Below, piece by piece: positions 34,436 through 58,583 of a DNA stretch of 64,000 bases (positions within the stretch are counted from its first letter, which is position 1; each line of letters opens with the position of its first letter). The DNA comes from a virus (Duplodnaviria; Caudoviricetes), in the IMG/VR virus record IMGVR_UViG_3300027759_000084, positions 1,743 through 65,742 of that record; one strand, written 5' to 3'. The position numbers and the translations under genes were made by a program. The notes under the pieces are model-generated. The model worked only from the letters and a program-made list of their open reading frames with translations. It was not told where the DNA came from and searched no databases.

Positions 34436-35064
34436 TCAGTTGGCCAAAGTGGCCTAAGTTCAGGCTCGTCCATATCCTTTTTTCTTATCCATATTTTCAT
34501 TGGCAGCAGGCAATGGCACACGGCGCAGTTCTTCAATAGCGGATCGCTAGGCGTATGCCGACTCGTCAAAAATGAGTTGATATGACCAACTAGACTCCTA
34601 GTTGAGCAAGATACGCAGAACTCCACAATCTTATCCGTGTTCTTCGGGCATGTCGCGCAAATAGCCGCTCTTCGATTCGCCTCCTCTTGATCCACAAGCT
34701 CGCCAGCCAAGTAAGGTTTTACGGCGGAGTTGTAGAATCGCTTCATCATCTGAAACGCTCCAATTTTAGCTTCGCTGTCAGGATCACGCTCGACACACAA
34801 GTCAGGACGATGCTGGCAAAATGCTTCCTGCATGATGAGGCCAAGATTCGCTGGAATCTCAATGCCATTTCCTTCCAGGTGCTCTTGAACTGACTTCGCT
34901 AGATCACGCCAGCCGTATCTGACGAACACCGTGTTTGTGGATTCGACGTGGTAGAAGAAGCCGTATGTATCGCCAGTGATGACAGCCGTTGGAAATAGCT
35001 CACGCAGCTTCGCGTGGTTAAATTCCTTTGGGATGGTGTTTTTGCGGATGAGTTCTTGCATCAC
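34414..35064 (-). CDS. Cys-rich protein coupled to the giant protein
   Basis: RAAICATCPKN..CVSC..CAVCHC..K..CW. Confidence 0.7.
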   Translation of the reverse strand: MMQELIRKNTIPKEFNHAKLRELFPTAVITGDTYGFFYHVESTNTVFVRYGWRDLAKSVQEHLEGNGIEIPANLGLIMQEAFCQHRPDLCVERDPDSEAKIGAFQMMKRFYNSAVKPYLAGELVDQEEANRRAAICATCPKNTDKIVEFCVSCSTRSLVGHINSFLTSRHTPSDPLLKNCAVCHCLLPMKIWIRKKDMDEPELRPLWPTDHPCWMR

Positions 35065-38000
35065 GTTGCAGGTTGATAGCCCCTATAGACCTTCTTGAGC
35101 GCCCTATCGCGCACTTCGTCAGCTTTGTCCAACAAGAATGCTCTAGCGCGTTCTGTGGGCATCTGGAGCGCACGCTGACCATATCGCAGAAGCATTTGCT
35201 TGTAGCCCTTGCCAGTTTCAAGGCTGTAGTTGTCGGCTTCTTCCTGCGTGAGTGAGCGACGACGAGCGCCCTTGCCAACCATGCGGTGTTCGGCATTGGC
35301 AGGAGTCAGCCAAATTCCACGGGAATTGAGAGCGCCAAGAACCTTGTAGGCAGGATCGGTTGGCTTCACCATGAACTCGCGGCTTCCAGGATACACATTG
35401 CGTTGGATTTGCTGCCCCAAGATGTCGTAGTACTCCTTGCCTTCGTAGCGACGGTAAACAGGGATGTGCGAGGCTGTTTTCTCCCATAGCGTTTCGTATT
35501 TACGCAGATTTGGATCTTGCGCGTAGTCGATGTCCTTCAAGAATCGAGGAACGAAGCCGCCAGCGTAGCTCGACATCACCTTGGCAAAACGCTCCATGCG
35601 TTTCTCGTTGGGGTCTTTGCTGGACAGGCTGTTGCCGAATAGCTCTTGGAACTGGGAAAGAGCAGGAATGTCAGCGGCAGCAGCAGCGCCAGACATTGCG
35701 GCACTTGCCATAATTTGAGCCACGTTTTTGTCATTCCATTGATCTGGGGAGAAGCGGATCAAGTCAGAAAGACTTCCGATAGCTGCAAGCGCAGATGAAA
35801 TAGGCCAGTTGGCGTAATTGAACACCTTGCCATTGATGCCGATAGTGTACTCTTTCTCGCCAGCGGCCAGCTTCTGCTGCTTCTTCTCAGGTGTGAGGTT
35901 ACCCCAGCTACCATTGATGAACCAACCACGCTTCTCGTCATCTGGCTCGTCTGCGATGGCCTTGAGGATTTGGTAGCCAGCAACGGATAGCATCACTCCA
36001 ATGAGCTGATTGCGCCGAATTGAGTCGATGAATGCTTCTTTTCCACTGATGCGATTAGGATCAAATTCAGCCTCAAATGCGCGAGCGAAACCAATGCCTG
36101 GAATGAAGCTCAGACCTTGGTTGAATTTGTTGCCAGCGAAACGTGCAAATCGAACACCGCCAAAGTTGGCTGCATTGTAAGCAGCGAACTGCATGAAGTA
36201 GGCGAATGCCAACTCAAGTCCAGAAAGAATCCTATCGCCATTCTGTGCTGAGTCATTCCATCCGCGTTGAGCTTGTTTCAGGAATCTATCAGCACCTGCT
36301 TCAGCATTGGTCACAAGCGATCTGATCGCACGATAGCCGACACCACCAAGTCCAGATGGATCAAGCGTCATGGCACCTTGTTGACCGAAGAAGTTGGCGT
36401 TCTCGGACACGTTGCCAAGTTTATCCAGTTCTGCCATCATGTCGGCCAGAGCGTAGGAATCAAGAATAGCCTTGTCGCGTGCAGACTTGGGAGGTGTTCC
36501 GCCGAAGTCTTTCTGAATAATGGTGTCCTTGTAAGGCTTCAAATTAGACTTCTTCTCCATTTCAGCAATCTTAGCTGGATCGAGTCCAATCTGGCGGAAT
36601 ACGATGGAAAGCGAGCCTTCCTTGGTGAGTCCACTATTGAATACGTCGAGAGCAGTCAGTAAACGGCTAACTGTCCGCATAAACAAGCCTGCGCTCTTGA
36701 CGAGAATCTTGTCAGACTTCGCCATTTGTTCTGCCAGCTTGTTGCTCTTGCCGATATTGCCCCATTGCATGTTCTCGGTCACATCGTTCATAGATGGATC
36801 AAGAAACACTGGATCACCACTAACAAGGTATTGCCACGCGATACGGGCTTGGCGTCCATAGGCACTCAGCAATCGAGCGAGTGTTTTGTATGCACCAGCA
36901 AGCTCAGATGGAAGCTGTTTTGGATTGGTGAATCCAGCGATGAACACGCGAGATAATGCCGTTGAAAGCTCGAATGCACCGCTGGCAACAGCAAGACCAA
37001 TTGAGACGATAGTATTTGGACCAGAGAGCACACTGGAAACCCAGAAGTCAGCGAGCATCTTTACCACTGGAATCTTGAGTTCGCCTTGCAGCACCTCAAG
37101 CAGCTTGTAGGCCGCAACTTGGCGCTTCACAGCGTTCAATCCTTCGTCTTGAAGAACCTCAATAAGCGAATTGATCTTCTCGCGCTCAGTCTCGGTGAAC
37201 TCGGACTTGATGCCGAATTTCTCTGCCATGCGCTTTGCCAGTTCATCGTTATCAAAGATGCCAAGATTGATGTCCTCAACGATACGCATCCGTTGCGCTT
37301 GAAGAGCTTTAGCGCCTTCTTTGCTGAGATTCTTCTTGGCCTCTTCTGCGCGAATCATACGCTCAAGCATACCATCTAGGATACGAGTGCGATTGGATTC
37401 CCATGCTTCCGCGAACAAGTCTGCGAGACGTGCCTTTTGCTCTGGCGTTGCGTTCTTGAGTTCTTCGTTGGCAGAGATGGCGTCAAAGATGCGCTGACGG
37501 TATTCTTCAACTGTTTTTGCGCTTTGGGAGAGAAGCTGACGCCAAGGGATAGGCGTCCTGAGAGGAATTTCCTCGCCACGGCGCATGTTATTGATCTCAT
37601 TGATCATTCGTCGCAGGGCTTTTGGGCCTTGCAGAATGTTGAATGCAGCCATTGCTTCGAGATCAGTCTTTTCGCGCTCAGCAGTCTTGAATAGGCGTTC
37701 AGCCACATCAGGCGAAACATCCAATTTAGCGAGGCGTTCAGCAAACTTTGATTTCTCAACTGGATCAGAAACTTGATCTTTGAAAGCCTTGTTAATGGAG
37801 TCACCAGATGTTGATTTTGATAGGTCTTTGGAACCTTGGCGCAACCTTTCCTCAGTAGAGTAAATAAGTCTGGATGCTTGTTTGTCGGCAATCTCAACTC
37901 GGCGCTTCTCGATTTTGAATTTCTTCATTCGAGCCAAGTCGGCACGCTCTCTGGATGCGGTTAGGAATAAGCGTTCAGAGACCTCTTCACCAACCTTGAG

Positions 38001-41000
38001 TGCGTCCAATCGTTCTGCGAATTGCTCAAATGATACAGGGTTTTTAACCTGATCTCTAAATGCTCGAATGATGGAGTCTTTTTGCTCCTTCTTTGACATT
38101 CCTTCAGGTGGATTCTTGAATCCTTGGCGATACAATTCCTCAAAGCGATAGACGATTTGAGATGCCTTGTTTTCGGCAATCTCAATTTCGTTGGCGATCT
38201 CTTCTGCTGTTGGCTCAATAGGTTGACCTTCTGCAACACGTTTCTCCACCGTGTCGATAATCTCCTTGCGCTTCTTGCGCTTTTTCTTCTCTGTTGGCGT
38301 ATCGTTTGGAGATTCCTCTCCAAGCAACTTGCCCATAATAGAGCGAAACTCAGCCAAGTCTTTTGCCTCCGCCGTCGCTGCTTCCTCATCCGACATTTGC
38401 AGAATGGCGTTAAGCTCGCTTCGCTCTGCATCTGTCATGGATGCCTTAGCATTTGCTACCTTCATATCCTTGCGACGTTTGTAGAAAGCAAATCTACGAA
38501 CCAGCATCTTTGCCCTTTCCCACAAGGTCTTATCTCCACCTTCAAATACCTGTTCACCTTCCTTGATCAATGCCCACTCATCATTATTGACGGCATCCTG
38601 AGCTATCTCATCCGCCGCCTGCTGATTGGCCTTATCAGAATTCTCATACGAGTTTTGCGTGAAGCTAGTCGCATTCTCACTTCCAAAGTTGGAAATAAGG
38701 ATATTAGTTCTAGCCTCCTTCATCACCTTCTCTGCGATTTCACGAATGAACATCCAGCTATAACGAGCCTTGTTCACAAGATAGCGTCGTTGTCCAAGGT
38801 GTTGACCTTTCTTGCTACCTACTCCTTGCCAGAATGCAGATAGGCGCTCGCTAAGTTTGGATAGTTGCTTCTTTCTGTCTGGAGACTTCGCCTTGCGTGC
38901 AGCATTGTCCACACGTTGACGGACTTCGATAGTCAGAGCGTCTTGGGCCATCAAGTCTTGCTCAATGCCAATGCTTTCAAGGAACACTGGCGAGATGACT
39001 GAGTTGGCAATATCATCAAGTGAAACGCCTTCCTTCTCAAGGTTGTTGACGTATTTTATGGCAGCGTCGCTGTATTCTTCAGCAGATTTTACCGCGCGAT
39101 CAATTGGCATGAAGTTTGTGAACTGAACACCTCCAAACGGAGCCTTAGCCTTTCCAGTGTTCGCGGCATCAACTTCCTTCCTGTAATCTTCCGTGGCCTG
39201 ACTATCCACAATAGACGCCATCGCTCTTGTCTGGAATCCAGACGGTGGCATAACGATGACAGAACCAGCGCGTTCGCCTTCGGTGGTAAAGGTAGCAAAT
39301 GGAGACTCACCTTCAATCAACAGCGCCCCACTGTCCTCATACAGCCCTTGCAAAATGCGGCTGAACTCGGTTTCCGTCACATCAGGCATCGACTGCTTCA
39401 CAATGCTGAAAAGCTCGTCTAGCGGCACCGATGGGCCATTTGTCTTTGGAGCAATATCGTATGCTGCACGAATAGTAGAACGCACTTCCTTGTCGCGTTC
39501 GTCGTAGTCAGTGTTGCGAGCTACTTCAGCGCCACTGTTGAATGCGGCATCGTTGGGGGAATCGTAGGTGACTTTGGATGCTTTTGCTTGGCTTGGTAAC
39601 TTGGTAACTATAGCGCCATTGGCTGCAATGTTTGCCTTAACTACCACAAACTCATCGCCCAATCTCTCTTTAAGATAATCAACAAGTTCGTTCCCATCGA
39701 AACCTTTTTGGAATGTGTCTCCTTGCTTCTTTTTGATAACGATAGACTTAGGCTCTACGCCAGTTTCTCCACTGGCGCGATCAACATCTCCACTCCACTT
39801 GCGAACGCCTATAATAGCCTTCCCACCATCATTTAAAAGTGATCCAATTTGATCTACAATTGCATCTCTGATATTCTTTGGGACGACGTTTAGTACGTTA
39901 AGGTTTACAATGCCGTCATACTTTTCCGTAATTTGACTGGAATCGGTAAATGTTGGCGGCTGATTTCCCTTCCATCTTTCAGGATTGACCTCAAACGAAT
40001 CAACATTGGCGATTTCTTCGCGCATGGCATCTGATCCAAGACCCAATCCAGCGCCATAATCAAGAACTCGGATGTTTGGCGACTTGTTAGCAAGGAGTAT
40101 ATTGGCCGCTTTTTGATACGATCCAACAGTTGTCGCAACTTGAGTGGTTCCAGACTGAGGCTCGTATGGAATGCTCGAAAGGCCAGCGTTTACAATTGCA
40201 TTTTGAACTTGGTTTCCACCAAGCATTACAATCGCATCCTCTTTAGATATATTTTCGCTTGAGTATGGTTCTATTGCCGCTCGTTGCTCTGGCGTAAATT
40301 TACGACGCGCCTCAACATCTCTAGCTTCAATTTCGCCAGCCAGTCGCTTATATTTAGCTGTTGGCTCATCCTTCTTGCCGTCGATATAGCTCTTCAGCAG
40401 TTCAGCGTCGATCTCATCGAGGTCTTTCTTTGTGCTACGCTTGGCGAGTTTGATCGCGGACTGAGCGAACTTTAGTTTGTAAGGAGGGCCAGCAAGGAAC
40501 CTAGCGGCAGCGTCAATATCTCCTTCAAACTGAAATGAAGCAGTGCGGAGTAGTGATCTAGCATCCGCCACTGCCTTACGCATAGCGTCCCGCTTCTTGA
40601 CCGAGTTCGCCTCTGTCTCAAACTGAGATGGAGAACCACCTTCAGCAAACCCTTCAATCTTTTGAATGGCGTGCTGTACTTCGTGCATGATCGTCCCAAC
40701 ACCTCCCCTAAACATGAAGAGTTCACTTCTAGGATCGACGTTAAAGTATCCTTGAGGATTAAATGAAGCGACATTTTGTGTCGGAAGTTTAGCTCCCCAA
40801 ACTTCACGATTCCTTAAATTAGGATATGCCTCAAACAGAGCGGGATGGTCGATGACTTCTCCAAGGGTTAGCTTCTTGCCGATTGCTGGAAGCCTGCGGA
40901 GTTTCGCCTCGTTATCAGGCACCTCAAACCGCATCTTCCCGTCATATTTGCCGGGGAACCAGCCAGTGACAGCGCGAATCTCTTCGCTCGTTTTGCCTGC

Positions 41001-44000
41001 TGCGGCCATCGCTTTAGCTGTATCCAACGAGTCGCGCATGAACTGACGACGCTCTTCGGGAAGATTTTCAATGGAGGTTTCGCCTGCATAACTCATCCGC
41101 ACGCCACCACCATTCACCAGCATGTCAGCATTAGCCTTCTCCGAATTCTTCAAGCTATTGCGAATCAAGCGGAAAACGTCTTTGTAGTCCTTCAAGGTAG
41201 GCTCACTCGTTTTGCCAGTGATCTTCTGCCAGATGCCACGCAGGAATTGCATAAACTCTGCCAAAATGCCATCACGCGGGATTTCAGTCATTGAGTCGAA
41301 GTCGCGAGTCATCGCTTCTTCAAGGATGCTGAAGTAGCTCACCTGATTCGTGCGCCAGTCTGCATACTCGCTGTAGGATTCAGCAAGCGAATCAAGCTCC
41401 TGTGGAGAATACATCCGGCGAAGGAACGCGAAGATCTGCATCTTCTCCTTCATCGACAAGAAGAACATGCCCTTGTGGATGTTCTCATGAAGGATGACGC
41501 GACGAACCGCTGCCACTTCTGGCGTAGTTCCTTGAAGATTGGCTAGCTTGCGATCAAGATCTGAAACGCCTACGTTGTCCGTGAAGACAATCGGCTGTCC
41601 ATTTTCCGACATGCCTTCGATTTTTGAGTTGGCGCTTACTGCTGCCCAAGTCTCAGGATAACGAACGCGATTAGCTGGATCAGCAAGGAAGTCCTTGGAT
41701 GTGCCAATCCAGGTGAAGAGCACGTTTGGAATCTCGCCCGAACGGTTGAGAATCGCGACAGCTTGATTGGCGTCAGTTGCCTTGACGGTGCCCTGAACGA
41801 CGTTCGTGCGCGTTTTCTGAATGAGCGAGTTGAGCGTTTTGAGGTTTAGCTCTTCGCGCTTCTTTTGTGCGGCCTCTGCTTTGGCTTGCTCCTTCTCGTC
41901 ACGCTCGATTTCTTTGGCGAGCTTAGCATCGGCTGCATCACGCTTAGCTTGAGCTTTAGCTGGTGATGATGCTGAAATAGAATCAAGCCATGATGCAAGT
42001 GTCTCGTTTGGTGAGAAACTACCACGAACCGAATCCCATAACTTTTTGAGCTTTTGTGCCAACTCAGAAAAGAAATTGTCAACTAGGCTCCTTGGAGCAT
42101 CCCTAGTTGCCGCCCATTTTGCCGTCTCATCACCAAACCATTCGCTAAACTTTGAGCGATATGCCTCCCATTGAGATACGCGCTGCTCTTGGGGGAATGG
42201 AGCGTTTGGGTTCATCCAGTCTGCATCAGTCATCCACTCCCATATACGGCGCTGGTCCGCCACAGATGGAATACCTTCTGATCCGTATTTACTATTGAAC
42301 CAATTTGTATATTCAGCCTCAATCGCTTTCTTTGTGGCTTCTGGAGCGTTTGCATATTCAAGCTCCATTATAGCGTGACCAATCTCATGCGCCATAGCAG
42401 ACGGTGTTGCTTTACTGCTGACAGCTATTGTTTTATCTGAGCGTGTCCAGATGCCACCGATATTACCACCTTCTAAAGCTGATTGCGTATTCTTCTTGTT
42501 TGCCATGTAAACAAGCTGATCAAGACGATTAGCTTTTCCAGATGCCACCTTCTTCTCCCACTCTGCATCAAGGCGCTCCATAGATTCCTCAATAGTGATA
42601 GCTTGAACTCCAGCTTTTTTGAGTGATGGGAATAATGCAATTAAGGCATTGCCATAGCCAATAGGGTCTAATACTGGCTGTTGATCTTTACTTGCGGCAT
42701 CTGCAATGTCCGCTTTTTCGTTTGACTCTATAGCAGTTGTAGCAGATTCTTGCTCAACAGCAGGGATCGACCCCTCTGCTGGTTGTTGAACAACACTGGC
42801 TACCGCCGCTTCCTTAGCCAAGGGAGCGGCGGTTTCTGTTGGTGTGGCTACCGTTGTGGTTTGGGGGGATGGAGCTAGGAAGGTCGCTTTCACGGCCTGT
42901 GCAGCAGAGGGCGCTGCCTTAACTGGTGTTGCATTAATGAGCCTGTCCAGTTCTGGCAGGGTTTCGTCCTGAAGGTATGTAACCACATCCTTGAGCCTTG
43001 CCGTTTCGCCTGACGGAAACTTCTTCTCAGTAGCTCTTTTCTGCGCCGGAGTCTTTGCTCCCATGGATGCGCGAGTGGATGCTCCAATACGCTCTTTAAC
43101 ATCCATTAGCAGGTTGTATGCCGCGTCAAACTTAGCTTGCGCTTCATCCTTACTGGTAGTGAAAATTGGTATGAGATTACGAAGCTCAGGATGTGGTGGT
43201 TCAAACTGAGGGTGACCAACAACAACATTGCTAAATGTCTGTCCAGAATCTACATTTTCACCTCTTTTGGCAGCTTCAATTCTGGCAATTCGACTTTCCA
43301 TTGCTGCGTCTGAACGACCAGACTCACGACGCATTTTAGCTATGTCCTTGAGCATCTCAAAGCCGTCATTATCCTGAATCAAAGGATCAACATCCCGCTC
43401 CATGGCGCTGCCTCCCGGCATGACCGTGCCTTCGGTAGCGGTCGTCGGCGTCCCTTGCGGGGTAATTGGTTTGGCTACTTCTTCTTGGATTTGACCTTCT
43501 GTGGCAACTTCTTGAGGCTGGGCGTTTCCTTGGCCCAGTCCTTGCAGTTCCATTTCGGGTCTTTCTTGGCGTAGCAAGCCTTCATCTGTGATTTGCTCTT
43601 GAATGGCATTTGGCGTTGTTTCTATGGGTTGATTTTGAATCGCCTCACCCGCCCCTGCACCTGCTTCCGCAGTTGGGGGCGGCACTGGCATTTCAATCTG
43701 CTCCATTGCTGGAGAAGGTGTTTTTGATCCAGTGTAGCGGTCTCCGTATTTGGCGACCAACTGCTTATTGATTCGCTCAATTTCTGGAGCGGCCTTTGCG
43801 GCAAACTGCTCTCGTGTTTTGGGAGCTTCACCAATGTTGTTGATAGCCTCCATGGCCGTCTCATCAAATGGAACGCCACTCATGCCAGCATAATTCCATG
43901 GAACATCTTTAATATTTCCAGTGCGTGCAATATCGAAACGCCCACCAACCTTGGCATTAAACTGAGCATCTTTTGCTGGACCGCTCTCGAATGGATTTAG

Positions 44001-45725
44001 GAGACTTCCAATTTCAGATTCAATCTTGGACGCAAGACTATTGGCGGCATCTTTATGACCAACATAAACAGTGAAATCAGACCCTTCTTCTGGTGATCCA
44101 CCGCTTAGAAGTTTATACTGACCTTTGTGGTTTTTATGCAACCACTCATCAACTGCCTGATAGTTCTCTGGAGTGACGGAAAGATGCAGCTTCCACCCTC
44201 CATTTTTAGCAAAATCATTGTTAGCAACTACGTCGGTAACACGAGGGCCGCTTGTTTTTCCATCTGGCTTCTGCTGTATGGCCGCCTGTAAACGCGGCAA
44301 ATTAACAGGTGTTTCTACGGTAGGAGCAACAGTTGGCTCCAGCAACTCAGCAGGCGCTTGTGGTTCTTGTGCAAGCGGTTGCTCTGGAGTGGGCGCTTCC
44401 AATTGTACTTGGCGTTCTGCGGCTGCTTTGGCTTGAGCGGCTTGTTCCTGAGCCAGCATTTGAGCGGCTTTATCAGCAGCACCTTCAGCTTGAGTTTTGA
44501 GCAGATTTTCATTAAGCTCCACGAAGGCAGTAGTTGAGCTTGAGACATTAGGAGATGTCGCGTTAGCTTTTACCACTAGCTCTTTGGGGATGACTTGGCT
44601 TGGTGGCTCTGGCGATGGTGGAGCAATAACCGCTGTTTTTCCCTGTGGATCAACCACTGTGGTTCCGCCAGCGTTCATATTGACGAGCTTTTCGTCGTCT
44701 GTCTGATCTGGGACTGTATCAACAGCATCCACATTATCTTCTGCAACGAACGCTTTTTGAATGTCAGTCTGCCTCTCTGGAGGAGTTCGGCCAAGTTTGT
44801 TGATCGCGCCAAACATTGCGCCACCAACACCCTCCCAAAGAGCAGCTTCACCAGCGCCCTCAAACAAACCTGGAGCTTCAACGCCAGTGGGAGCAGTAAG
44901 CAGAGTTGAGAGATTGCTGAGAACTTGCGTGGAACCGCCTTCAGCAGCTTCTTGGGCTGCGCTCATGCGGATACCTGGAATTACTCTGCCAGCAGCATCT
45001 TCAACACCTCCAAGCAAGCGACGGGCGGCAGACGTTTCAAGCGCAGAGCCGAATGGAAGCATTTCTGGAGCAAGTTCAGATATGCCACCGCCAAGAAGAT
45101 TCAAATACCCTTCAGCGCCAGTGATGCCAAGACGCTCATTTTCGGCAGCTTTAGCAGCAGCGCCTTGAGCAAACCCTGTGCCGTATAGGGCAGATTTAGC
45201 GCCAGCTTGAATGGCTTGATTTGTGAGAGCTTGCCTAGCGGCAGCAGAACCGGCAGCGGCGGCACGTTCAGCGCCTAGAGCTTTACCAGCAAGTCCACCA
45301 ACGCCACTTGTGCCGATGATGCTAGCCACATTACCAGCCACATTTGCCACTTTGGCAGGAATGCCTTGCTCGTAAATTGGATTGACTGGCGCGATGTATT
45401 CCAGCCCTTCGCGAGCAGATTCGCCAAGATTGCTGATTGGCTCGATGCCAGTCAGAGCACCAACGCCCTCCAATGTGCCTGGAACAATTTCACCGAATCC
45501 ACGGGCAGCACTTCCGAGTGTGGAGGTGACTATTCCTTGACCAGAATCGTCTGGAGTTTGCCAAAAGTCATCAAAAACAGCTTTTTGTGTCTGTGGCGAG
45601 AACGCTTTAAATTCAGGATCAGAAGATATTTCTCGTTCAAAAAATCCCTGCTTAACCAAAGCCCTTCCCTGTTCGGAAAGTTCTTGATATTCTGGATCGC
45701 GTGTAATCTCGTGCCAAGTAGCCAT
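35061..45725 (-). CDS. Giant polyvalent internal virion (ejection) protein, 3554 aa
   Basis: Gly/Ala-rich N-terminus; GWKLHLSV domain; HEIGH, HENIH, HEVQH; LPD23-like segment (TGWF..DGKMRFE, HPALFEAYP, RLAGEIEAR); SAM motif VLDYGAGLG. Confidence 0.85.
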   Translation of the reverse strand: MATWHEITRDPEYQELSEQGRALVKQGFFEREISSDPEFKAFSPQTQKAVFDDFWQTPDDSGQGIVTSTLGSAARGFGEIVPGTLEGVGALTGIEPISNLGESAREGLEYIAPVNPIYEQGIPAKVANVAGNVASIIGTSGVGGLAGKALGAERAAAAGSAAARQALTNQAIQAGAKSALYGTGFAQGAAAKAAENERLGITGAEGYLNLLGGGISELAPEMLPFGSALETSAARRLLGGVEDAAGRVIPGIRMSAAQEAAEGGSTQVLSNLSTLLTAPTGVEAPGLFEGAGEAALWEGVGGAMFGAINKLGRTPPERQTDIQKAFVAEDNVDAVDTVPDQTDDEKLVNMNAGGTTVVDPQGKTAVIAPPSPEPPSQVIPKELVVKANATSPNVSSSTTAFVELNENLLKTQAEGAADKAAQMLAQEQAAQAKAAAERQVQLEAPTPEQPLAQEPQAPAELLEPTVAPTVETPVNLPRLQAAIQQKPDGKTSGPRVTDVVANNDFAKNGGWKLHLSVTPENYQAVDEWLHKNHKGQYKLLSGGSPEEGSDFTVYVGHKDAANSLASKIESEIGSLLNPFESGPAKDAQFNAKVGGRFDIARTGNIKDVPWNYAGMSGVPFDETAMEAINNIGEAPKTREQFAAKAAPEIERINKQLVAKYGDRYTGSKTPSPAMEQIEMPVPPPTAEAGAGAGEAIQNQPIETTPNAIQEQITDEGLLRQERPEMELQGLGQGNAQPQEVATEGQIQEEVAKPITPQGTPTTATEGTVMPGGSAMERDVDPLIQDNDGFEMLKDIAKMRRESGRSDAAMESRIARIEAAKRGENVDSGQTFSNVVVGHPQFEPPHPELRNLIPIFTTSKDEAQAKFDAAYNLLMDVKERIGASTRASMGAKTPAQKRATEKKFPSGETARLKDVVTYLQDETLPELDRLINATPVKAAPSAAQAVKATFLAPSPQTTTVATPTETAAPLAKEAAVASVVQQPAEGSIPAVEQESATTAIESNEKADIADAASKDQQPVLDPIGYGNALIALFPSLKKAGVQAITIEESMERLDAEWEKKVASGKANRLDQLVYMANKKNTQSALEGGNIGGIWTRSDKTIAVSSKATPSAMAHEIGHAIMELEYANAPEATKKAIEAEYTNWFNSKYGSEGIPSVADQRRIWEWMTDADWMNPNAPFPQEQRVSQWEAYRSKFSEWFGDETAKWAATRDAPRSLVDNFFSELAQKLKKLWDSVRGSFSPNETLASWLDSISASSPAKAQAKRDAADAKLAKEIERDEKEQAKAEAAQKKREELNLKTLNSLIQKTRTNVVQGTVKATDANQAVAILNRSGEIPNVLFTWIGTSKDFLADPANRVRYPETWAAVSANSKIEGMSENGQPIVFTDNVGVSDLDRKLANLQGTTPEVAAVRRVILHENIHKGMFFLSMKEKMQIFAFLRRMYSPQELDSLAESYSEYADWRTNQVSYFSILEEAMTRDFDSMTEIPRDGILAEFMQFLRGIWQKITGKTSEPTLKDYKDVFRLIRNSLKNSEKANADMLVNGGGVRMSYAGETSIENLPEERRQFMRDSLDTAKAMAAAGKTSEEIRAVTGWFPGKYDGKMRFEVPDNEAKLRRLPAIGKKLTLGEVIDHPALFEAYPNLRNREVWGAKLPTQNVASFNPQGYFNVDPRSELFMFRGGVGTIMHEVQHAIQKIEGFAEGGSPSQFETEANSVKKRDAMRKAVADARSLLRTASFQFEGDIDAAARFLAGPPYKLKFAQSAIKLAKRSTKKDLDEIDAELLKSYIDGKKDEPTAKYKRLAGEIEARDVEARRKFTPEQRAAIEPYSSENISKEDAIVMLGGNQVQNAIVNAGLSSIPYEPQSGTTQVATTVGSYQKAANILLANKSPNIRVLDYGAGLGLGSDAMREEIANVDSFEVNPERWKGNQPPTFTDSSQITEKYDGIVNLNVLNVVPKNIRDAIVDQIGSLLNDGGKAIIGVRKWSGDVDRASGETGVEPKSIVIKKKQGDTFQKGFDGNELVDYLKERLGDEFVVVKANIAANGAIVTKLPSQAKASKVTYDSPNDAAFNSGAEVARNTDYDERDKEVRSTIRAAYDIAPKTNGPSVPLDELFSIVKQSMPDVTETEFSRILQGLYEDSGALLIEGESPFATFTTEGERAGSVIVMPPSGFQTRAMASIVDSQATEDYRKEVDAANTGKAKAPFGGVQFTNFMPIDRAVKSAEEYSDAAIKYVNNLEKEGVSLDDIANSVISPVFLESIGIEQDLMAQDALTIEVRQRVDNAARKAKSPDRKKQLSKLSERLSAFWQGVGSKKGQHLGQRRYLVNKARYSWMFIREIAEKVMKEARTNILISNFGSENATSFTQNSYENSDKANQQAADEIAQDAVNNDEWALIKEGEQVFEGGDKTLWERAKMLVRRFAFYKRRKDMKVANAKASMTDAERSELNAILQMSDEEAATAEAKDLAEFRSIMGKLLGEESPNDTPTEKKKRKKRKEIIDTVEKRVAEGQPIEPTAEEIANEIEIAENKASQIVYRFEELYRQGFKNPPEGMSKKEQKDSIIRAFRDQVKNPVSFEQFAERLDALKVGEEVSERLFLTASRERADLARMKKFKIEKRRVEIADKQASRLIYSTEERLRQGSKDLSKSTSGDSINKAFKDQVSDPVEKSKFAERLAKLDVSPDVAERLFKTAEREKTDLEAMAAFNILQGPKALRRMINEINNMRRGEEIPLRTPIPWRQLLSQSAKTVEEYRQRIFDAISANEELKNATPEQKARLADLFAEAWESNRTRILDGMLERMIRAEEAKKNLSKEGAKALQAQRMRIVEDINLGIFDNDELAKRMAEKFGIKSEFTETEREKINSLIEVLQDEGLNAVKRQVAAYKLLEVLQGELKIPVVKMLADFWVSSVLSGPNTIVSIGLAVASGAFELSTALSRVFIAGFTNPKQLPSELAGAYKTLARLLSAYGRQARIAWQYLVSGDPVFLDPSMNDVTENMQWGNIGKSNKLAEQMAKSDKILVKSAGLFMRTVSRLLTALDVFNSGLTKEGSLSIVFRQIGLDPAKIAEMEKKSNLKPYKDTIIQKDFGGTPPKSARDKAILDSYALADMMAELDKLGNVSENANFFGQQGAMTLDPSGLGGVGYRAIRSLVTNAEAGADRFLKQAQRGWNDSAQNGDRILSGLELAFAYFMQFAAYNAANFGGVRFARFAGNKFNQGLSFIPGIGFARAFEAEFDPNRISGKEAFIDSIRRNQLIGVMLSVAGYQILKAIADEPDDEKRGWFINGSWGNLTPEKKQQKLAAGEKEYTIGINGKVFNYANWPISSALAAIGSLSDLIRFSPDQWNDKNVAQIMASAAMSGAAAAADIPALSQFQELFGNSLSSKDPNEKRMERFAKVMSSYAGGFVPRFLKDIDYAQDPNLRKYETLWEKTASHIPVYRRYEGKEYYDILGQQIQRNVYPGSREFMVKPTDPAYKVLGALNSRGIWLTPANAEHRMVGKGARRRSLTQEEADNYSLETGKGYKQMLLRYGQRALQMPTERARAFLLDKADEVRDRALKKVYRGYQPAT

Positions 45726-52378: not shown

Positions 52379-53855
52379 TGGATCACATCGTCTGGGGGTG
52401 GTGGAGGATAGATTGTGATCCGCTCCCTCAACCAAAGACCGTTAGTGTTCTGTTGGCGGTCCTCAATTATGAACGGTGCCCAATCTAGGAAATTTGTCGC
52501 TGGAAAAATCTGCGTAAAAGAATTACGATTTGTGGGCGCTGGATATACGCCGACACCTAAAACTGGCGTTTCTGGCTGAACCTTTAAAAACACGCAGGTT
52601 GGATGCAAGCAACGCTCAAATTTCATGCTCAAACCAATGTAATTACCATCAACATCTGTTGGAACAGGCTGGATGTGGGTCAATTCACCGGCTGAATAGG
52701 CTACATCTGACAAAAACTGCTCAACCAAGATAGTGCTATTATACGAGATTCCAGGACGGTAACGATACCTTGGCAGAAGCCTGTCAGCCGTCTCTGTATT
52801 TGCTCCATTGTTCACCACTTGCGGGAATCCAACTGCTCTAGCTGCGAACAAGTCTTCAAGCACAGAAGGCCAAGTGTATTGCCTTGTGTCGTAGTAGAAA
52901 TTAAACGGAACTCTGCGTTGCGCTGGAGTTCTTGGCCTGCCAAAAAACAACGTAACATGGTCCGCATCAGGCTTGTCAGATTTGAGATAGACGTAGTTGC
53001 CGTAAGATGGAAACTTTGAAAGCATCTCGCGTCCAACCGTCCACCCGCACTGATTAAATGAAGTTGGACGCGCACCAACAAGTGAGGCGCTTTGAGCAGA
53101 AATCAGCGTTGATCCATCTGGGAAAACCAATTCAGGACCAATGTAGTCCTGCGGCACTCGTACAGAGAACATGAACTCCTCTTCGTGCGGAGTTGGTAAC
53201 AGTTGAAAATTGCTAGCCATTAGACCGTTTCAGGTGGTTCATTGGAGATTTGATCGCCATCTGCCCATGTAGCATACAAATATGTTGGTGTGGCGCTATT
53301 AGCCTGACGGAATCTCCAATGAGTCTTTTTGAGAACGGATTGGCGAAGATCTTCGTGCGACACTTCATCGCTAGTGGTTGAAGTGACAGATGATGGAATA
53401 ACACTTACGTTCGTGCCGAATATCTTCGTACCAGCGGTTGCGGAATAAGTTCCACTTACAGTCTGTACCGTAAGAGGATCAACCGGAATCAGACCAGCCT
53501 TAAAGTCCAATTTTTCAGAATTAACCGTTGTTATTGTTGTAGATCCACCGCCTTGAGGTGGGGGAGTAACCGTCAAACTACCTGGCGCTGAATAAAGAGA
53601 TGTTGAAGTATCAAACAGATCTCGATACTCGCTAGACCAGACGTTCATGTCTGGCTCAGAATCACCAGTTAGAACAATCTCATCAATTTTGGAGAATTTC
53701 TGCCAGCGGCGGTCTTTTCGGAATAGATAAACGTCTGAAGCCATATTTTTTACCATATCCGCTTGACGGAATGATGCAAGTGGGATTATGGTTATCACAG
53801 CTTGAAAAAGCTGGCTTCGGGTGCAACTGGAGCAATCCACGGTAATCCGAAGCAA
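52375..53855 (-). CDS. Two putative virion proteins (52375..53220; 53220..about 53756)
   Basis: Head of the minus-strand virion operon, overlapping stop/start. Confidence 0.6.
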
Positions 53856-53895
53856 AAGCCCGAATTTCCGCCTGCACCCCGGTATTCGGGCTTTT
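53854..53895. terminator. Terminator-like hairpin (possibly bidirectional)
   Basis: aaaagcccgaat...attcgggctttt. Confidence 0.6.
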
Positions 53896-54181
53896 TCATG
53901 TTCTGATTTTTAGCCTACTCAGCAAAAGAGGCTACTCAAACCGAGAGGAATGAAACGCTCGACATGCAGGCCGTGAGAACGTCATGTGCTCCCCGTAGCG
54001 CCAAAACGGGGGATTTCGTGGGGGTCTAGCTCAAAATGAGTAATCATCAGAGTTGGCGGTGCGAATCAAAACAAGACTGCCGGGTTGCCCTCCCATACCT
54101 AACCATTGCCTTGTGCATGGGGAGGTGGGAGGGGTTGTGCCTGAGAGAGAATTCCCAAGTGATACTGAAGCCAATCCTGTT

Positions 54182-54406
54182 ATGATCCTGACCAAGAAAA
54201 CCATTGAAGCCCTTTTTAACTGTGGATCGCCTAATTCACGCCAGCTAGCAACACTGAGAATACGCCAAACAAAGGGCTGGATGCAGCGCCTTATCGGAAT
54301 AGAAATCAGCGAGGCTCTTTATGCTGAACTGATTGCCTGCAAAGGTCGAAGGCCATCAGGATTGCCAAAAGCCCAATGGAAAAAGCCATGTATCCCAACT
54401 GAATAA
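54182..54406 (+). CDS. Small hypothetical protein
   Basis: MILTKKTIEAL...KGWMQRLIG; start inferred. Confidence 0.5.
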   Translation: MILTKKTIEALFNCGSPNSRQLATLRIRQTKGWMQRLIGIEISEALYAELIACKGRRPSGLPKAQWKKPCIPTE

Positions 54407-54623
54407 ATGATGATCCGCTACTACCGCCTCCACAACGGTTCAATCTTTCGCTATCACGGCGTCATGATGCTCAAGAAGTCTGTATTCAAGGCGGTGACGC
54501 ATTCATTCGCACTTGGGAAGAATAAGACCATCAGCGTCCTCATGCTTCCATTCGTTAAAGTTGAAGTAGTGAAAACGAAATAATTTGCATCGCGTTAAAT
54601 AACGTGATAAGATTGATGACTAT

Positions 54624-54881
54624 ATGAAACCAATACAAGTAAAAACCACGCAAGGTCAACGCTATCGTATCCTCCGAGAGGTCAACTGCTTGAGTCAGCA
54701 GGCAGTGAATGAGCACATGGGACGTGCTTCCAGTTGGTGCTCGCAGCTAGAAAAAGACTGCTTTGAACTGACTGTGGATGCCGCATTAAAAATAGCAAGG
54801 ATGTATAAAGTAACTCTTGATCAGCTTATTGGAGAAGAGCAGATAGATGTTGTGCTGATGCCAAAAGTGAACGGATTTTGA
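54624..54881 (+). CDS. XRE-family HTH regulator
   Basis: LRE...LSQQAV...SQLEK...LKIARMYKVTLDQLIG. Confidence 0.8.
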   Translation: MKPIQVKTTQGQRYRILREVNCLSQQAVNEHMGRASSWCSQLEKDCFELTVDAALKIARMYKVTLDQLIGEEQIDVVLMPKVNGF

Positions 54882-54996
54882 TTAAAAAAATGAACAACAA
54901 AACAGAATTGATCGAGGCAATCATTCAGGCACACGCTTGAGGCTTTTGGATATTAATATGAAACGGATTTTCTAACCATCCACCATGAGAATGACT

Positions 54997-55039
54997 AATG
55001 ACACCAATGACACCAATGACACCAATGACACCAATGACA
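54997..55039 (+). repeat. 9-bp tandem repeat at an ORF start
   Basis: aatgacacc x4 plus aatgaca. Confidence 0.9.
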
Positions 55040-55247
55040 GACGAGAAACTAAAGGAAATCCGAGAACTGGCTTACGGCATGTCCGTGGCAAATATGAACC
55101 TGGACGATGTTGCCGACTACATGGCAATCGCCTCGGCGTGCGCACGCATGGAAAGCCGCCGCGCCAACCAGACAGCCACCGCATCAGGAGAACTTATTCC
55201 GAATACCTGACAACATTCGCTAGACATGGGGCGCGTGTTCTGTGTCC

Positions 55248-55561
55248 GGCGAACCGATAAGCACAGCAACCAAGGGAGCGAAATATGAGCGCCGAAGAAC
55301 ACGATCAAATGCCCGCCGCGACCGCAGGTTGCGCTGCTGCGGCTGGGTATGCCGGGGCGCTCAAAGCTCTAGCGGAAATGAGCCGCAACGAAGGAATGCT
55401 GTCTATGCAAGCCGGACTTGCGGACGATACACTGGCCAGACTGAACCATAAACAGAATGAAGTTGCACTAGCCTACGCGCATTTGAGACTCAAACGGCAT
55501 ACCCAAAAGATCAGCGACGGCTGAGCCTTGGCGAAGAAGTTGGCTGCATCGGACGTTCGGC
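55248..55561 (+). mobile_element. Integron-like gene cassette between two attC-like palindromes, containing ORF 55285..55524
   Basis: gggtatgccg (55345..55354) and cggcataccc (55495..55504) are exact complements; outer ends ggcgaac and gttcggc; imperfect inner arms. Confidence 0.55.
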
Positions 55562-57369
55562 TAAGTAGCCCACAAGCCAGCCAACTGCTTGAATCTCTTC
55601 TGCAATGGATTTGGTTTGCCGGGATTGTGATTTCCAGGCTTATCAATACTTGAGAGGCCATGCTTCTCACGGCAAAGTTCAATTAGAACGCAGGCGCTAT
55701 CATAAACGTCTGGCGACTTACCTGTTCTACGCTTCATATCGACTTTGGACTCAACCTTAATTCTTGACCCTCCATCAAGCGCCTTATTGTCTTTGTACTT
55801 ACGAACCGTCATCTCGTCAGCCATCTCCTTTGTGATGTTGCGTAGTTGATCGCAGCGAATCAGTTCTTTGCCACACCCCCAAAGTTCGCTAACCCTGTTA
55901 GCATACCTTACACTTGATTTCTCACGATCAGCAGCAGACACAGGACGATCTGAAGCCTTGCCACCGAAGTCCACACGCAAGAAGGTGTTACCCCACTTGC
56001 TCCACATGGCATCAGCGAAGGTCTTGCCACCACCAGCAGACGCATCAATTGCCACATCCTTGATGTCGATTCCATCCTTCTTGCAGATGTCTTTAATCTG
56101 GTCAATAAGCTGCGTAGTGCGGTCAACGTCGCGTTTGCTAGCATCGTCATTGAGAAGGATATGGCGCTCAAACTTGAGTCGTTTCTTGCCATCAGTGCAG
56201 ATGCCAATGGAGCCAATCGTCATCACTGTTTTGTCGCCACCACTGGTATATGAAAGGTCGATGCCGCATACCTTTGTTGGAATCCCCTGCCACACGCAAT
56301 CCTTGGGCGTCTTGATAATTTCAGCGGGCGAATAAATATTGTCATCGTCTCCATCAAGCAAGAACGCACCAAGAACACCACGCCAGTAAGCTCTTGTATG
56401 CTGGCCCAGCTTCTCTCGTTTTTCTTCCAACATCTCGCGAGTCATCAAGAACGGGTAGATCACCTTGCCCTCAATGATGTTTGGCGATGTCTCGTTATTG
56501 ATTCGGATGACGTGAGCGCCTTTCCCTTTCCACTCGTCCCAATCTGGGTTGTAGCTGTCCCATCCTCCAGGAATAGGCTCACAAAGCTGCCCAAAGGTAT
56601 CAAATGGCGAATTGGCGTTGGCTAGCGCGATAAGCTGGACATTTGGATTCTGCGTCAAGTTTTCCTCGAACGTATTGATAATGGATGGCGAAAGTTCAGC
56701 GCACTCATCCAGAACAACAATGAGCTTACCGCCAGGGCCATGCTTCTGACCTCGAATGGCGCGTGAGGATTCAGCGGCTTTGCTTTGCTCACCTGGAAAC
56801 AAGCGGATGCCGTACTCATCCATTACAACGCCAGTGTTCAGATCCATCGACTTGATACAGTGCGAGGATTCTACCAGCTTGCCAGGAGGTGCTCCAGCCA
56901 TGCCATTGAAGTAACGAGTGATCTGGCCCCAAATACGTCCCATCGAGTCCTTAATAGTCGTAGTGTTGACGAGAACGACGTTCTTGTATGGATTTGCCAA
57001 CCACCAAACGAGACAGTAAACGGCGAACAAACCAGTCTTGCCGCCAGAACCACCAGATGAGATCGCGAGACGCTTGTTTTCAAATGCGGCCTTTGCCATC
57101 TTGATCGCCCAAGGATGCCACATGAACGGAGTCCTACTTCCTGGGTAGTTCCAGATGAGGTTCACTGCGTTTACAAAATGAATCCACGCAGGCTTTCCTT
57201 GTGGGTTTTTATCGCCCTTCCAACCGAATAACGAACCCGTTGGACACTTGAGGAAGATCAACTCGACATCCAGTTGATTGCCAAATTGATGATCAAACTT
57301 GATGCCGTATGTCTCGATTGGTCCTCGCGTTAGTTGGACGACGCGAGATTTTTGGGGCTTCTGCTTCAT
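55561..57369 (-). CDS. terL: Terminase large subunit
   Basis: Walker A GGSGGKT, Walker B VVLDE, LANAN coupling motif, GIDLS..GGD, KSPDVYD. Confidence 0.9.
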   Translation of the reverse strand: MKQKPQKSRVVQLTRGPIETYGIKFDHQFGNQLDVELIFLKCPTGSLFGWKGDKNPQGKPAWIHFVNAVNLIWNYPGSRTPFMWHPWAIKMAKAAFENKRLAISSGGSGGKTGLFAVYCLVWWLANPYKNVVLVNTTTIKDSMGRIWGQITRYFNGMAGAPPGKLVESSHCIKSMDLNTGVVMDEYGIRLFPGEQSKAAESSRAIRGQKHGPGGKLIVVLDECAELSPSIINTFEENLTQNPNVQLIALANANSPFDTFGQLCEPIPGGWDSYNPDWDEWKGKGAHVIRINNETSPNIIEGKVIYPFLMTREMLEEKREKLGQHTRAYWRGVLGAFLLDGDDDNIYSPAEIIKTPKDCVWQGIPTKVCGIDLSYTSGGDKTVMTIGSIGICTDGKKRLKFERHILLNDDASKRDVDRTTQLIDQIKDICKKDGIDIKDVAIDASAGGGKTFADAMWSKWGNTFLRVDFGGKASDRPVSAADREKSSVRYANRVSELWGCGKELIRCDQLRNITKEMADEMTVRKYKDNKALDGGSRIKVESKVDMKRRTGKSPDVYDSACVLIELCREKHGLSSIDKPGNHNPGKPNPLQKRFKQLAGLWAT

Positions 57370-57667
57370 ATCTGTTGAATGGGTAGTTCAGAACTGGTAA
57401 GTTTCAAGATTATATGTTCTATGAACATCTGCCAAACTTGTTATAAAAACGGGCGATCTCTGTGGCAAGGTTGTTGTCTATGCAGCAAAGATGTGATGAC
57501 ATCCAGCCAATTCCATGCTTGGAACGCAACTCGCAGGGTTCATCATGATATACCTCAACCAAAGATTGAGGTGAAGCAGGTGGTCTTTAGAAAGCCAAGG
57601 CCGGTCTTTGGGCAGAGGTTGCAGAAGTGACTTGCGATAAGTCAATTTACGATGTCATATCTGAAAT

Positions 57668-57895
57668 ATGATAAACCATGAAGTTGAGACTATTGAGGAT
57701 GCGCTGACGATGTTGCAAGCGACTGTATTTGAGCCAGAGTTTGCCGCTCCTTTGATCAGGCGAAATTTGGAGCATGGGTTATGCTCTAGCTACGAGGTTC
57801 AGTTTTTTAAGGGAACGAATGGCGTATGTATGTCAGCAAAGATGACTCCAACTTACAAAAGTAAGTACCTCGGAAAATATGACGGTTTGGAGTGA
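57668..57895 (+). CDS. Hypothetical protein
   Basis: ATG ORF in gap. Confidence 0.45.
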   Translation: MINHEVETIEDALTMLQATVFEPEFAAPLIRRNLEHGLCSSYEVQFFKGTNGVCMSAKMTPTYKSKYLGKYDGLE

Positions 57896-57917
57896 TGATC
57901 ATCCAATTCTCTTTGAG

Positions 57918-57946
57918 TTGACAATTATAGAATGATTTGCAATAAT
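57918..57946 (+). promoter_or_regulatory. Sigma70-like promoter of the HNH gene
   Basis: TTGACA-17 nt-AATAAT. Confidence 0.55.
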
Positions 57947-58583
57947 GTCGAGCCATCGCGGAGTTTCAGTCTCCGCAACGGCTCTAACGAACTCACATAC
58001 TACTATTATGCAAATCGCTAATGCAATGGTGCCACGCGCACAGAAAGAAATCAAGTTCACACCGGAACAAGAGCAAAAATTTTGGTCAAAAGTTGATAAA
58101 TCTGGAGGTAATGATGCCTGTTGGCTTTGGACCGCTGGTAAAGTAAACGGTGGTTATGGACAATTTTCGCTCAATGGTGAAGTCGCTCTGTCGCACCGTG
58201 CTGCATGGATTATCACGAATGGTCAAATACCAAACGACGTAAGCAATGGTAGAATTTTAGTCTGTCATCGGTGTGATGTTCCAACATGCTGCAACCCCAA
58301 TCATTTGTTTCTCGGAACATACAGCGATAACGCTAGAGACAGAGAAAATAAAAATCGAGGCAACCACGCTAAAGGTGATTCTAATGGTTCTCGTAAATAT
58401 CCTGAGCGATTGAGGCGCGGCGAATCGCATGGTCGAGCTAAGCTTTCCGCAACTCAAGTCATTGAAATTCGCACTCGATATGCAGCTGGCGGAATATTTC
58501 ATCGTGAACTTGCCGCATATTTTGGCGTATCTACACCGCTAATAACTGATATAATCAAACGAAGGCGCTGGAAACATATATAA
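57945..58583 (+). CDS. HNH endonuclease with C-terminal HTH
   Basis: FWSKVDK..CWLWT..GYGQF..SHRAAW..VCHRCDVPTCCNPNHLFLGT..DN..D; probable start at MQIANA. Confidence 0.9.
   Translation: MSSHRGVSVSATALTNSHTTIMQIANAMVPRAQKEIKFTPEQEQKFWSKVDKSGGNDACWLWTAGKVNGGYGQFSLNGEVALSHRAAWIITNGQIPNDVSNGRILVCHRCDVPTCCNPNHLFLGTYSDNARDRENKNRGNHAKGDSNGSRKYPERLRRGESHGRAKLSATQVIEIRTRYAAGGIFHRELAAYFGVSTPLITDIIKRRRWKHI

Follow-up and report, generated by a model that had tools for sequence, protein, structure and literature searches.

The stretch of DNA analysed here, which we call the window, covers 64 kb of a 65.7 kb lake phage record in IMG/VR that CheckV rates as complete. A megablast search of positions 54000-58000 against cultured phages found no close relative. 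In this window, an island of small plus-strand ORFs sits between a block of large minus-strand ORFs, which are apparently structural genes, and a minus-strand ORF of 602 aa (Table 1). A single ORF of 3554 aa (35061-45725, minus strand) lies inside the block. The island contains an HTH regulator gene, a thyX remnant, and two small ORFs that we refer to as ORF1 and ORF2. The 602-aa ORF had been named terL in the initial annotation. This label is weak, and we keep it as putative: the best sequence match in the PDB is the large terminase 8dkr_B (E = 0.098), Pfam and PHROG gave no match, and tblastn against cultured phages returned one match of 22%. An HNH endonuclease gene is located just upstream of putative terL on the opposite strand (57945-58583, plus strand; HNH_3, 4.9e-8; phrog_1872, 7.8e-29). 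Two relatives, L017 and L018, carry about 690 bp inserted in the 3′ part of putative terL, at the equivalent of window position ~55630; the terL match in these contigs spans 2491 nt, versus 1806 nt, and an intron, an intein or the insertion of a homing endonuclease could account for the extra length.

Table 1. Features of the island and its right flank, in window coordinates
Feature	Position	Strand	Remarks
HTH (XRE-like) small regulator ORF	54624..54881	+	phrog_7241, 1.6e-7; HTH_31, 0.0033
thyX remnant	54890..54956	+	Internal deletion, premature stop
Leader and ORF1 region	54957..55247	+	ORF1 at 54998..55210, 70 aa
Site A, A-type attC-like element, 107 nt	55248..55354	+	From its sequence and from copies elsewhere
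Putative mobile cassette, 248 nt	55254..55501	+	C, site A hairpin, ORF2 body, ...GGCATA
ORF2, 79 aa	55285..55524	+	N-terminus supplied by site A; last 7 codons and stop supplied by site B
Site B, B-type attC-like element, 66 nt, putative resident site	55496..55561	+	Conserved next to the terL stop
Putative large terminase (terL), 602 aa	55561..57369	-	Conserved right flank

The HTH ORF forms the conserved left flank of a variable region, and homology to relatives stops between 54868 and 55010. The thyX remnant retains only the first and last codons of the gene, joined at an ATCG microhomology. An intact ORF of 225 aa occupies this position in seven relatives, and the copy in L004 (2084-2758, minus strand) matches Thy1 (PF02511) with 111 bits. 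The remnant, with its internal deletion between ATCG microhomologies, is found in the window and in about 14 others. The leader (54957-55010) is common to three different ORFs in relatives. ORF1 has no family match in Pfam or PHROG. It opens with a 9-nt tandem repeat (ATGACACCA-like, 54985-55036) present in about five copies in the window versus about two in L006 and L048, and the copy number shifts which ATG, and which frame, opens the ORF. An Rfam scan of 53800-55800 gave chance-level matches only (E 1.3-9.3).

Two attC-like sites and the ORF between them

The initial annotation described sites A and B as attC-like sites bounding an integron-type cassette, and its details of the sites, their boxes and arms, and the complementarity of their inner and outer ends were all correct on re-reading. 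In site A, the 5′ box GGCGAAC (55248-55254) precedes the arms GCACAGCAACC (55261-55271) and GGTTGCGCTGCTGC (55327-55340), which are 83% complementary over 12 nt. GGTATGC follows, and the 3′ box is GTATGCCG (55347-55354). The loop holds a ribosome-binding site (AAGGGAG, 55272-55278) and, downstream of it, the start codon of ORF2. Site B has the 5′ box GGCATAC (GCATACC from 55497 in the earlier register), the arms GATCAGCGAC (55509-55518) and GTTGGCTGCATC (55539-55550) and, on its 3′ side, the spacer GGAC followed by the 3′ box GTTCGGC (55555-55561). The claim that ORF2 starts inside one site and stops inside the other was confirmed, with the ATG at 55285 in the loop of site A and the TGA at 55522-55524 in the 20-nt loop of site B. 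Site B had also been said to abut the terL stop; the contact stands, since the last base of the site overlaps the stop of the 602-aa ORF, but the name of that ORF does not stand equally well.

Against the consensus 3′ arm of B-type elements, G[T]TCGCTG[C]ATC, the arm GATCAGCGAC leaves, by inspection, two bulges 6 bp apart, the distal one being a T. In the window, site B carries a G instead of the consensus C at 55542, which breaks one stem pair. This window-specific G weakens the site B stem and improves an alternative pairing with the 3′ end of terL, and a 13-nt inverted repeat (92%) spans the terL stop (55534-55546 with 55578-55590).

The inner ends of the two sites are perfect complements over 11 nt (55344-55354 with 55495-55505), and the outer ends, ggcgaac and gttcggc, are complementary except at one mismatch. 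The outer box of site A ends in AAC and that of site B begins with GTT. The boxes of the cassette itself are GTA/TAC, or GGT/ACC in the earlier register; this core, previously singled out as unusual, recurs in A-type copies of other contigs. ORF2 has no Pfam or PHROG match, and its ten homologous clusters are all unnamed. Inspection by eye showed no sigma-70-like promoter in either site. By eye only, possible degenerate box remnants can be seen further upstream, at 55188-55194 (GGAGAAC) and 55235-55242 (GTTCTGTG).

The swapped repeat that the initial annotation took as evidence is present in the window, but by itself it lies within chance, because perfect 11-mer inverted-repeat seeds at most 200 nt apart number 6 in the window, versus 3.24 ± 2.29 in 50 shuffles. 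Folding of the bottom strands had been proposed as a check and gave no support: as single-stranded DNA, both sites on both strands folded no better than shuffled sequences (z = -0.29, +1.12, +0.63 and +0.86). The significance of the sites therefore comes from related sequences only.

A family of hairpin elements in uncultured phages

Starting from seeds found by arm patterns, we recognized a family of hairpin elements of 65-110 nt that separate small ORFs in one-strand arrays on many uncultured phage contigs. Pattern scans combined with inspection gave 64 distinct elements of three related types (A, B and C). The scans were noisy, and about 14 of 31 distinct A-pattern matches and about half of the 70 distinct C-pattern matches were judged genuine, by eye, from the conservation of their flanks. 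On the ORF-sense strand, the layout is xxxxAAC, spacer, 5′ arm, loop, 3′ arm with extra bases, spacer, and GTTxxxx. The spacers measure 4-9 nt across elements, and the loop, of 10-60 nt, encloses the upstream stop together with a ribosome-binding site, an ATG and 10-25 initial codons of the ORF that follows. It is the nucleotide sequence that is conserved: its reading frame varies (KISDG-stop versus QHQATASK-stop), and the 3′ arm is non-coding in B and coding in A.

To describe the stem, we aligned C-type copies (n = 34), in which 88.1% of cells are paired, compared with 83.7 ± 0.7 in column shuffles (a level reached by 0 of 500) and 30-45% in slid controls; eleven pairs are changed on both sides. 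A covariance model built from these 34 copies gave 20 and 138 matches in two locus sets, leaving 85 non-overlapping elements after antisense overlaps were dropped, with one orientation per locus and at most 8 elements per locus. In 50 distinct non-seed elements, aligned by fitting to the model in a way that favours structure, the inner stem is 91.2% paired versus 64.8 ± 1.1 when shuffled, with many compensatory pair types. Applied to the entire window with its filters off, the same C-type model missed both A and B, and its best match lay elsewhere (11.2 bits, E = 0.61). The assignment of A and B to the family is based on their shared architecture, the similarity of their arms, their co-occurrence in the same arrays with model-detected elements, and the A-type copies located beside intI genes.

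The elements resemble attC sites as described by Nivina et al. (2016, PMC5027507). In that account, the bottom strand of attC carries a first box, 5′-RYYYAAC, that is cut between A and C; extrahelical bases lie 6 bp apart on the L′′ (3′) arm, the distal one being T; the unpaired spacer is 5-6 nt long; and the total length is 57-141 nt. Site A, at 107 nt, and site B, at 66 nt, agree with these lengths and spacers. In the family, 79 of 84 elements have extra bases on the 3′ arm, in the form of a conserved bulged C. The proximal bulge is a C rather than a G, and the T is paired as G.T in C-type copies. The CG, AU and AU core pairs of the AAC/GTT boxes are found in 29-33 of the 34 C-type copies. 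Most boxes read nnnGAAC/GTTCnnn and a minority TAAC/GTTA, and the extended attC consensus RYYYAAC/GTTRRRY is not followed, position 4 being C/G rather than R/Y.

The AAC box is in frame as a codon of the upstream ORF in 84 of 92 elements, and 2-27 codons then lead to a stop in the next element. Thus, any cassette placed before any site would end properly. Stops inside elements (87% versus 51% in a mechanical control) and starts inside elements (79% versus 68%) are only mildly above expectation. All cassette ORFs lie on the attC bottom strand, co-directional with intI, and start inside the loop. This includes the methylases, which account for four of the 10 largest cassette ORFs and were confirmed with Pfam. 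One array in L117 (1945-5319, minus strand) has neighbouring cassettes for three DNA methylases of different kinds (N6_N4_Mtase, MT-A70 and Dam). At the nucleotide level, one of these genes shares 85% identity with a gene of a Stenotrophomonas phage, a possible clue to the host; blastn of this array against cultured phages matched the methylase genes only. In 185,579 bacterial genomes, one exact A-type motif gave 10 matches, all of them chance matches in GC-rich genomes with no upstream arm.

Complementary boxes across each cassette

The swapped pairing of the ends had been read as the signature of integron cassette insertion, and the family as a whole upholds this claim. Between neighbouring elements, the 3′ box of the first is perfectly complementary to the 5′ box of the second over at least 8 nt in 29 of 51 distinct adjacent pairs, versus 1.6-4.6% in controls. 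The controls comprised the two boxes of the same hairpin (5/108), the outer boxes (1/51) and random pairs (1.6% of 19,568), and the difference was significant (Mann-Whitney p = 5e-8 and 1.6e-13). The window pair and an A-A pair in L051 entered this count as non-matching, their box registration being off by 1-3 nt; their true runs are 8 nt. In L117, the match extends over 8-12 nt in six of seven consecutive pairs and over a run of 5 in the remaining one. The R box of the same hairpin shows no covariation (68.7% versus 67.0%), as expected if the two halves of an element belong to different cassettes. Box complementarity across each ORF is the signature of an integron cassette.

Integron integrases beside the arrays

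We searched 25 element-bearing viral records with PF00589 and with TIGR02249, for which the NCBIfam cut-off is 265 bits. Five records scored above this cut-off (G006, G008, G009, G015 and G020; 280-355 bits) and two just below it (G018 and G019; 247-250 bits). An integron integrase is therefore present in 7 of the 25 records, and 18 have no intI; none of the 14 control genomes passed the cut-off. The protein of G009 aligns over its full length to IntI4 (PDB 2a3v, E = 1e-63), and the seven phage proteins are 28-78% identical in pairwise comparison. G015 is a complete genome of 39 kb with direct terminal repeats. Each of the seven records has an element on the same strand as intI, 0.24-2.6 kb upstream of it, and in G018, G019 and G020 an A-type copy lies upstream of intI. 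Elements are found both upstream and downstream of intI in G006 (~31.5-35.2 kb) and G009 (8.3-14.1 kb). In G006, 9 of 12 positions match between the boxes on either side of the stretch with intI, as though the gene were part of the array. A second array, on the opposite strand, is located at the left end of the contig in G009 and G015.

Canonical integrons encode intI on the bottom strand of attC, with the array upstream of the 5′ end of the gene. The same arrangement in the seven phage integrons is independent support for identifying the ORF-sense strand with the bottom strand. Canonical integrons have cassette genes divergent from intI; unlike in sedentary chromosomal integrons, the cassette genes here are co-oriented with it. 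Overall, a sequence family linked to IntI is well supported, with recombination at its sites being putative.

The initial annotation found no integrase in the phage, and no tyrosine recombinase was detected with PF00589 across the 65.7 kb genome. Five relatives, four of them complete, likewise gave no IntI. An intI gene beside the array, which defines a complete integron, is thus present in the five records above the cut-off, nearly so in G018 and G019, and absent from the window phage and its five relatives. Because the window phage and the four complete relatives have no intI, the array in this lineage is of the CALIN type and would depend on a recombinase supplied in trans.

Variation of the locus among relatives

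A search with putative terL returned 47 related viral loci with 84-100% amino acid identity. In 30 relatives with both flanks anchored, the stretch between the HTH ORF and terL falls into 10 length classes from 202 to 1393 nt. The content of the window occurs in none of these 30, and 55011-55496 is absent from all 47 loci. The variable contents in relatives include intact thyX, a DNA methylase and various small ORFs, and nearly all variable ORFs end in element B. Of the 33 relatives in which both flanks are present, 19 have site B beside the terL stop; the cargo before it consists of nothing, small ORFs, two tandem cassettes or a DNA methylase. In 12 relatives (7 with intact thyX and 5 with the remnant), thyX is joined directly to the terL stop, without B. 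Homology between the window and its relatives restarts at 55562 or at 55497-55505, the inner edge of B. In four lake and freshwater runs, assembled contigs repeat the IMG/VR variants, and several variants occur within one run; this comparison used assembled contigs, in which the window part 55037-55505 has no cover.

Site A together with the ORF2 body (55257-55499) was found again, at 88.5% identity, in L049, a contig of 46 kb that has nothing else in common with the window. The match ends at 55499, and the ORF ends in ...KRHTQKISDG-stop in the window and in ...KRHDQHQATASK-stop in L049. Site A alone (55259-55352) precedes unrelated ORF bodies in L050 and L051. Unrelated ORF bodies follow copies at 84-90% identity in L049-L054, L057 and L083; those of L061, L063, L070, L077 and L080 are more diverged. 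Site A is thus a discrete module of at least 13 other contigs, and ORF2 travels with site A and not with the downstream site.

The initial annotation placed the crossover at G/GT of the 3′ box, and proposed that related genomes be aligned for insertions and replacements. The relatives point instead to AA/C of the 5′ box. L006 equals L048 plus one unit of hairpin and methylase, placed between ...CAGAAC and B, that is, at ...GAA/C. In L077 and L080, divergence starts immediately 5′ of AAC. These junctions place the crossover to within the AAC, which is shared. The alignments therefore show presence, absence and replacement exactly at the boxes, as predicted, but several variants have other origins. 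In L021, the ORF of L017 has been lost through a microhomology deletion flanked by GCAC. The switch between L090 and L105 lies within the 5′ stem of the hairpin core, and the outer stems are unpaired in L090, L117_1887 and L138. These core-internal junctions and microhomology deletions indicate that homologous and illegitimate recombination also act at the locus.

Such junctions raise the question of whether the hairpins are conserved linkers, that is, PeSL-like patches of homology for ordinary homologous recombination between co-infecting phages, with no site-specific enzyme in this lineage. The hairpin cores are nearly identical between cassettes, and the switch within the L090/L105 stem and the unpaired outer stems are what one would see under such exchange, as are the lack of intI in the window phage and four complete relatives and the co-occurrence of several variants in single lake metagenome runs. 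However, exchange by homology does not explain boxes of 8-12 nt that are cassette-specific and complementary around each ORF; furthermore, the stems keep their pairing through compensatory changes, and integron integrases stand beside the arrays in a fixed geometry. We consider this explanation unlikely, though it is the strongest competitor of the integron reading.

A putative integron cassette and its mechanism

In the reading that we favour, A and B are attC-type sites of a phage-borne integron family, and the window contains a two-site CALIN-type array between the thyX remnant and putative terL; we regard this as probable. The proposal of an integron-type cassette with attC-like sites thus appears to be largely borne out, by comparative data only: the complementarity of the boxes, the covariation of the stems, the variation among relatives, the copy in L049 and the presence of IntI in 7 of 25 records all support it. 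A CALIN has been defined as a set of two or more attC sites on the same strand, spaced by less than 4 kb and with no nearby intI (Cury et al. 2016, PMC4889954). Both sites of the window lie on the plus strand, about 140 nt apart, and the array would be a CALIN under this definition provided that A and B are attC sites.

Since the ORF-sense strand has the layout of an attC bottom strand and the crossover maps to the 5′ box, the cassette of the window would extend from 55254 to 55501, with crossovers between 55253 and 55254 in site A and between 55501 and 55502 in site B, and site B would be the resident site. Its ends, GTATGCCG and CGGCATAC, are complementary over 8 nt, or 11 nt with the inner extension. 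In general, a cassette would start with the C of the AAC box, continue through the hairpin and the GTTxxxx box into the ORF body, and end with xxxxAA. Cleavage of the folded single strand by the integron integrase would fall between A and C, and the excised cassette would form a circle in which its two complementary boxes are paired, ready to re-insert at another such site. For the window cassette, the circle would join 55501 to 55254 and leave the empty form ...GGCGAA/CCCAAAAG... We infer that IntI moves these cassettes and that, in the lineage without intI, the enzyme comes from a co-infecting phage or from the host.

The position of the elements also suggests a function in RNA. The elements could act mainly as mRNA hairpins that frame the ribosome-binding site and start codon and couple or regulate translation or processing, with recombination being incidental. 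They always lie on the ORF-sense strand with stop, ribosome-binding site and ATG in the loop, and their AAC box is in frame, as noted above. In addition, one G.U pair is kept in all 34 of the 34 C-type copies, and G.U pairs outnumber A.C. On the other hand, an RNA function predicts neither the complementary boxes across the ORF, nor the breakpoints at AAC, nor the linkage to IntI; no Rfam family was matched, and no ORF that they could regulate lies downstream of terminal copies such as site B. As the main role of the elements it is therefore very improbable, although the elements may have a dual role in RNA and in recombination. That the window repeats are chance inverted repeats in a mosaic phage region would agree with the lack of excess fold stability and with an 11-nt repeat within the shuffle range, but the comparative data contradict it so clearly, with site A in at least 13 other contigs, site B beside terL in 19 relatives and both fitting a family with covariation, arrays and linked integrases, that we give it almost no weight. 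A transposon or MITE with terminal inverted repeats was also considered and dropped, since beyond GTTC the repeats vary from one cassette to another and there is no linked transposase.

Relation to known systems

With the integron reading as the favoured one, the closest described systems include the integrons and CALINs of phages. Qi et al. (2023, PMC9892861) report 3 complete integrons, 1 In0 and 17 CALINs (21 in all) in 10,705 NCBI phage genomes. They describe integron components in phages as infrequent, and those treated in detail are captured fragments of bacterial integrons; one CALIN has the structure of a typical bacterial array. Five of six tested phage attC sites work with IntI1, and methylase cassettes are noted. 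Their data imply that attC clusters in phages without intI were already known. As in the systems they describe, the arrays here are of the attC type with single-ORF cassettes, occur in phages that include virulent ones and ones lacking intI, carry methylases, and have an integrase expected in trans. Unlike those systems as described, the sites here form a sequence family of their own, found in no cultured phage by blastn, their boxes are GAAC/GTTC, and the ORFs, with starts internal to the loop, run on the bottom strand of attC. In the literature compared, with the site sequences of PMC9892861 outside the comparison, nothing closer was found on phage-encoded integrons in viral contigs, loop-internal starts or inverted cassettes.

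The sites also share features with those of sedentary chromosomal integrons such as the Vibrio cholerae superintegron, as far as these are described (PMC5027507). In both, the attC sites are highly similar across many unrelated cassettes, the 5′ box of the folded bottom strand contains AAC, the 3′ arm carries extrahelical bases, the spacer is unpaired, the loop is long and variable, and the crossover is placed between A and C; the integrases belong to the same IntI family. The phage elements differ in that the replicon is a phage, translation starts within attC, the first bulge is C rather than G, and position 4 of the box is C/G rather than R/Y.

A further likeness is to the PeSL motifs of T4-type phages. 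In a PeSL, an early promoter is joined to a terminator-like stem-loop, and homologous recombination is the mode of action; PeSLs are not known to have complementary, cassette-specific end boxes or a linked tyrosine recombinase. They have been described as short conserved stem-loops that flank small novel ORFs in hyperplastic regions (PMC2839356, PMC4122927). Like the elements here, they are associated there with insertion, deletion and replacement of the flanked small ORFs.

These observations lead to a broader proposal, for which we see the arguments as evenly balanced. Freshwater phages would possess an integron class of their own, with IntI encoded in complete phage genomes. In this class, attC would be remodelled into a gene start, its loop supplying ribosome-binding site, ATG and N-terminus, and a universal gene end, with AA/C in a fixed codon phase and the stop in the next loop, and the bottom-strand cassettes would be co-directional with intI and with the phage operon. 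Lineages without intI would share a pool of methylases and small orphan genes through the integrases of co-infecting phages or hosts.

If the family works as proposed, integron recombination would be a native tool with which uncultured phages shuffle accessory genes such as those for DNA methylases. A recombination site, a translation start and a translation end would be fused in one element, so that every shuffle would yield a complete ORF. This would bear on how cassettes and attC sites originate and on how arrays without intI, the CALINs, stay mobile, and the family supplies concrete substrates and enzymes with which these ideas can be tested.
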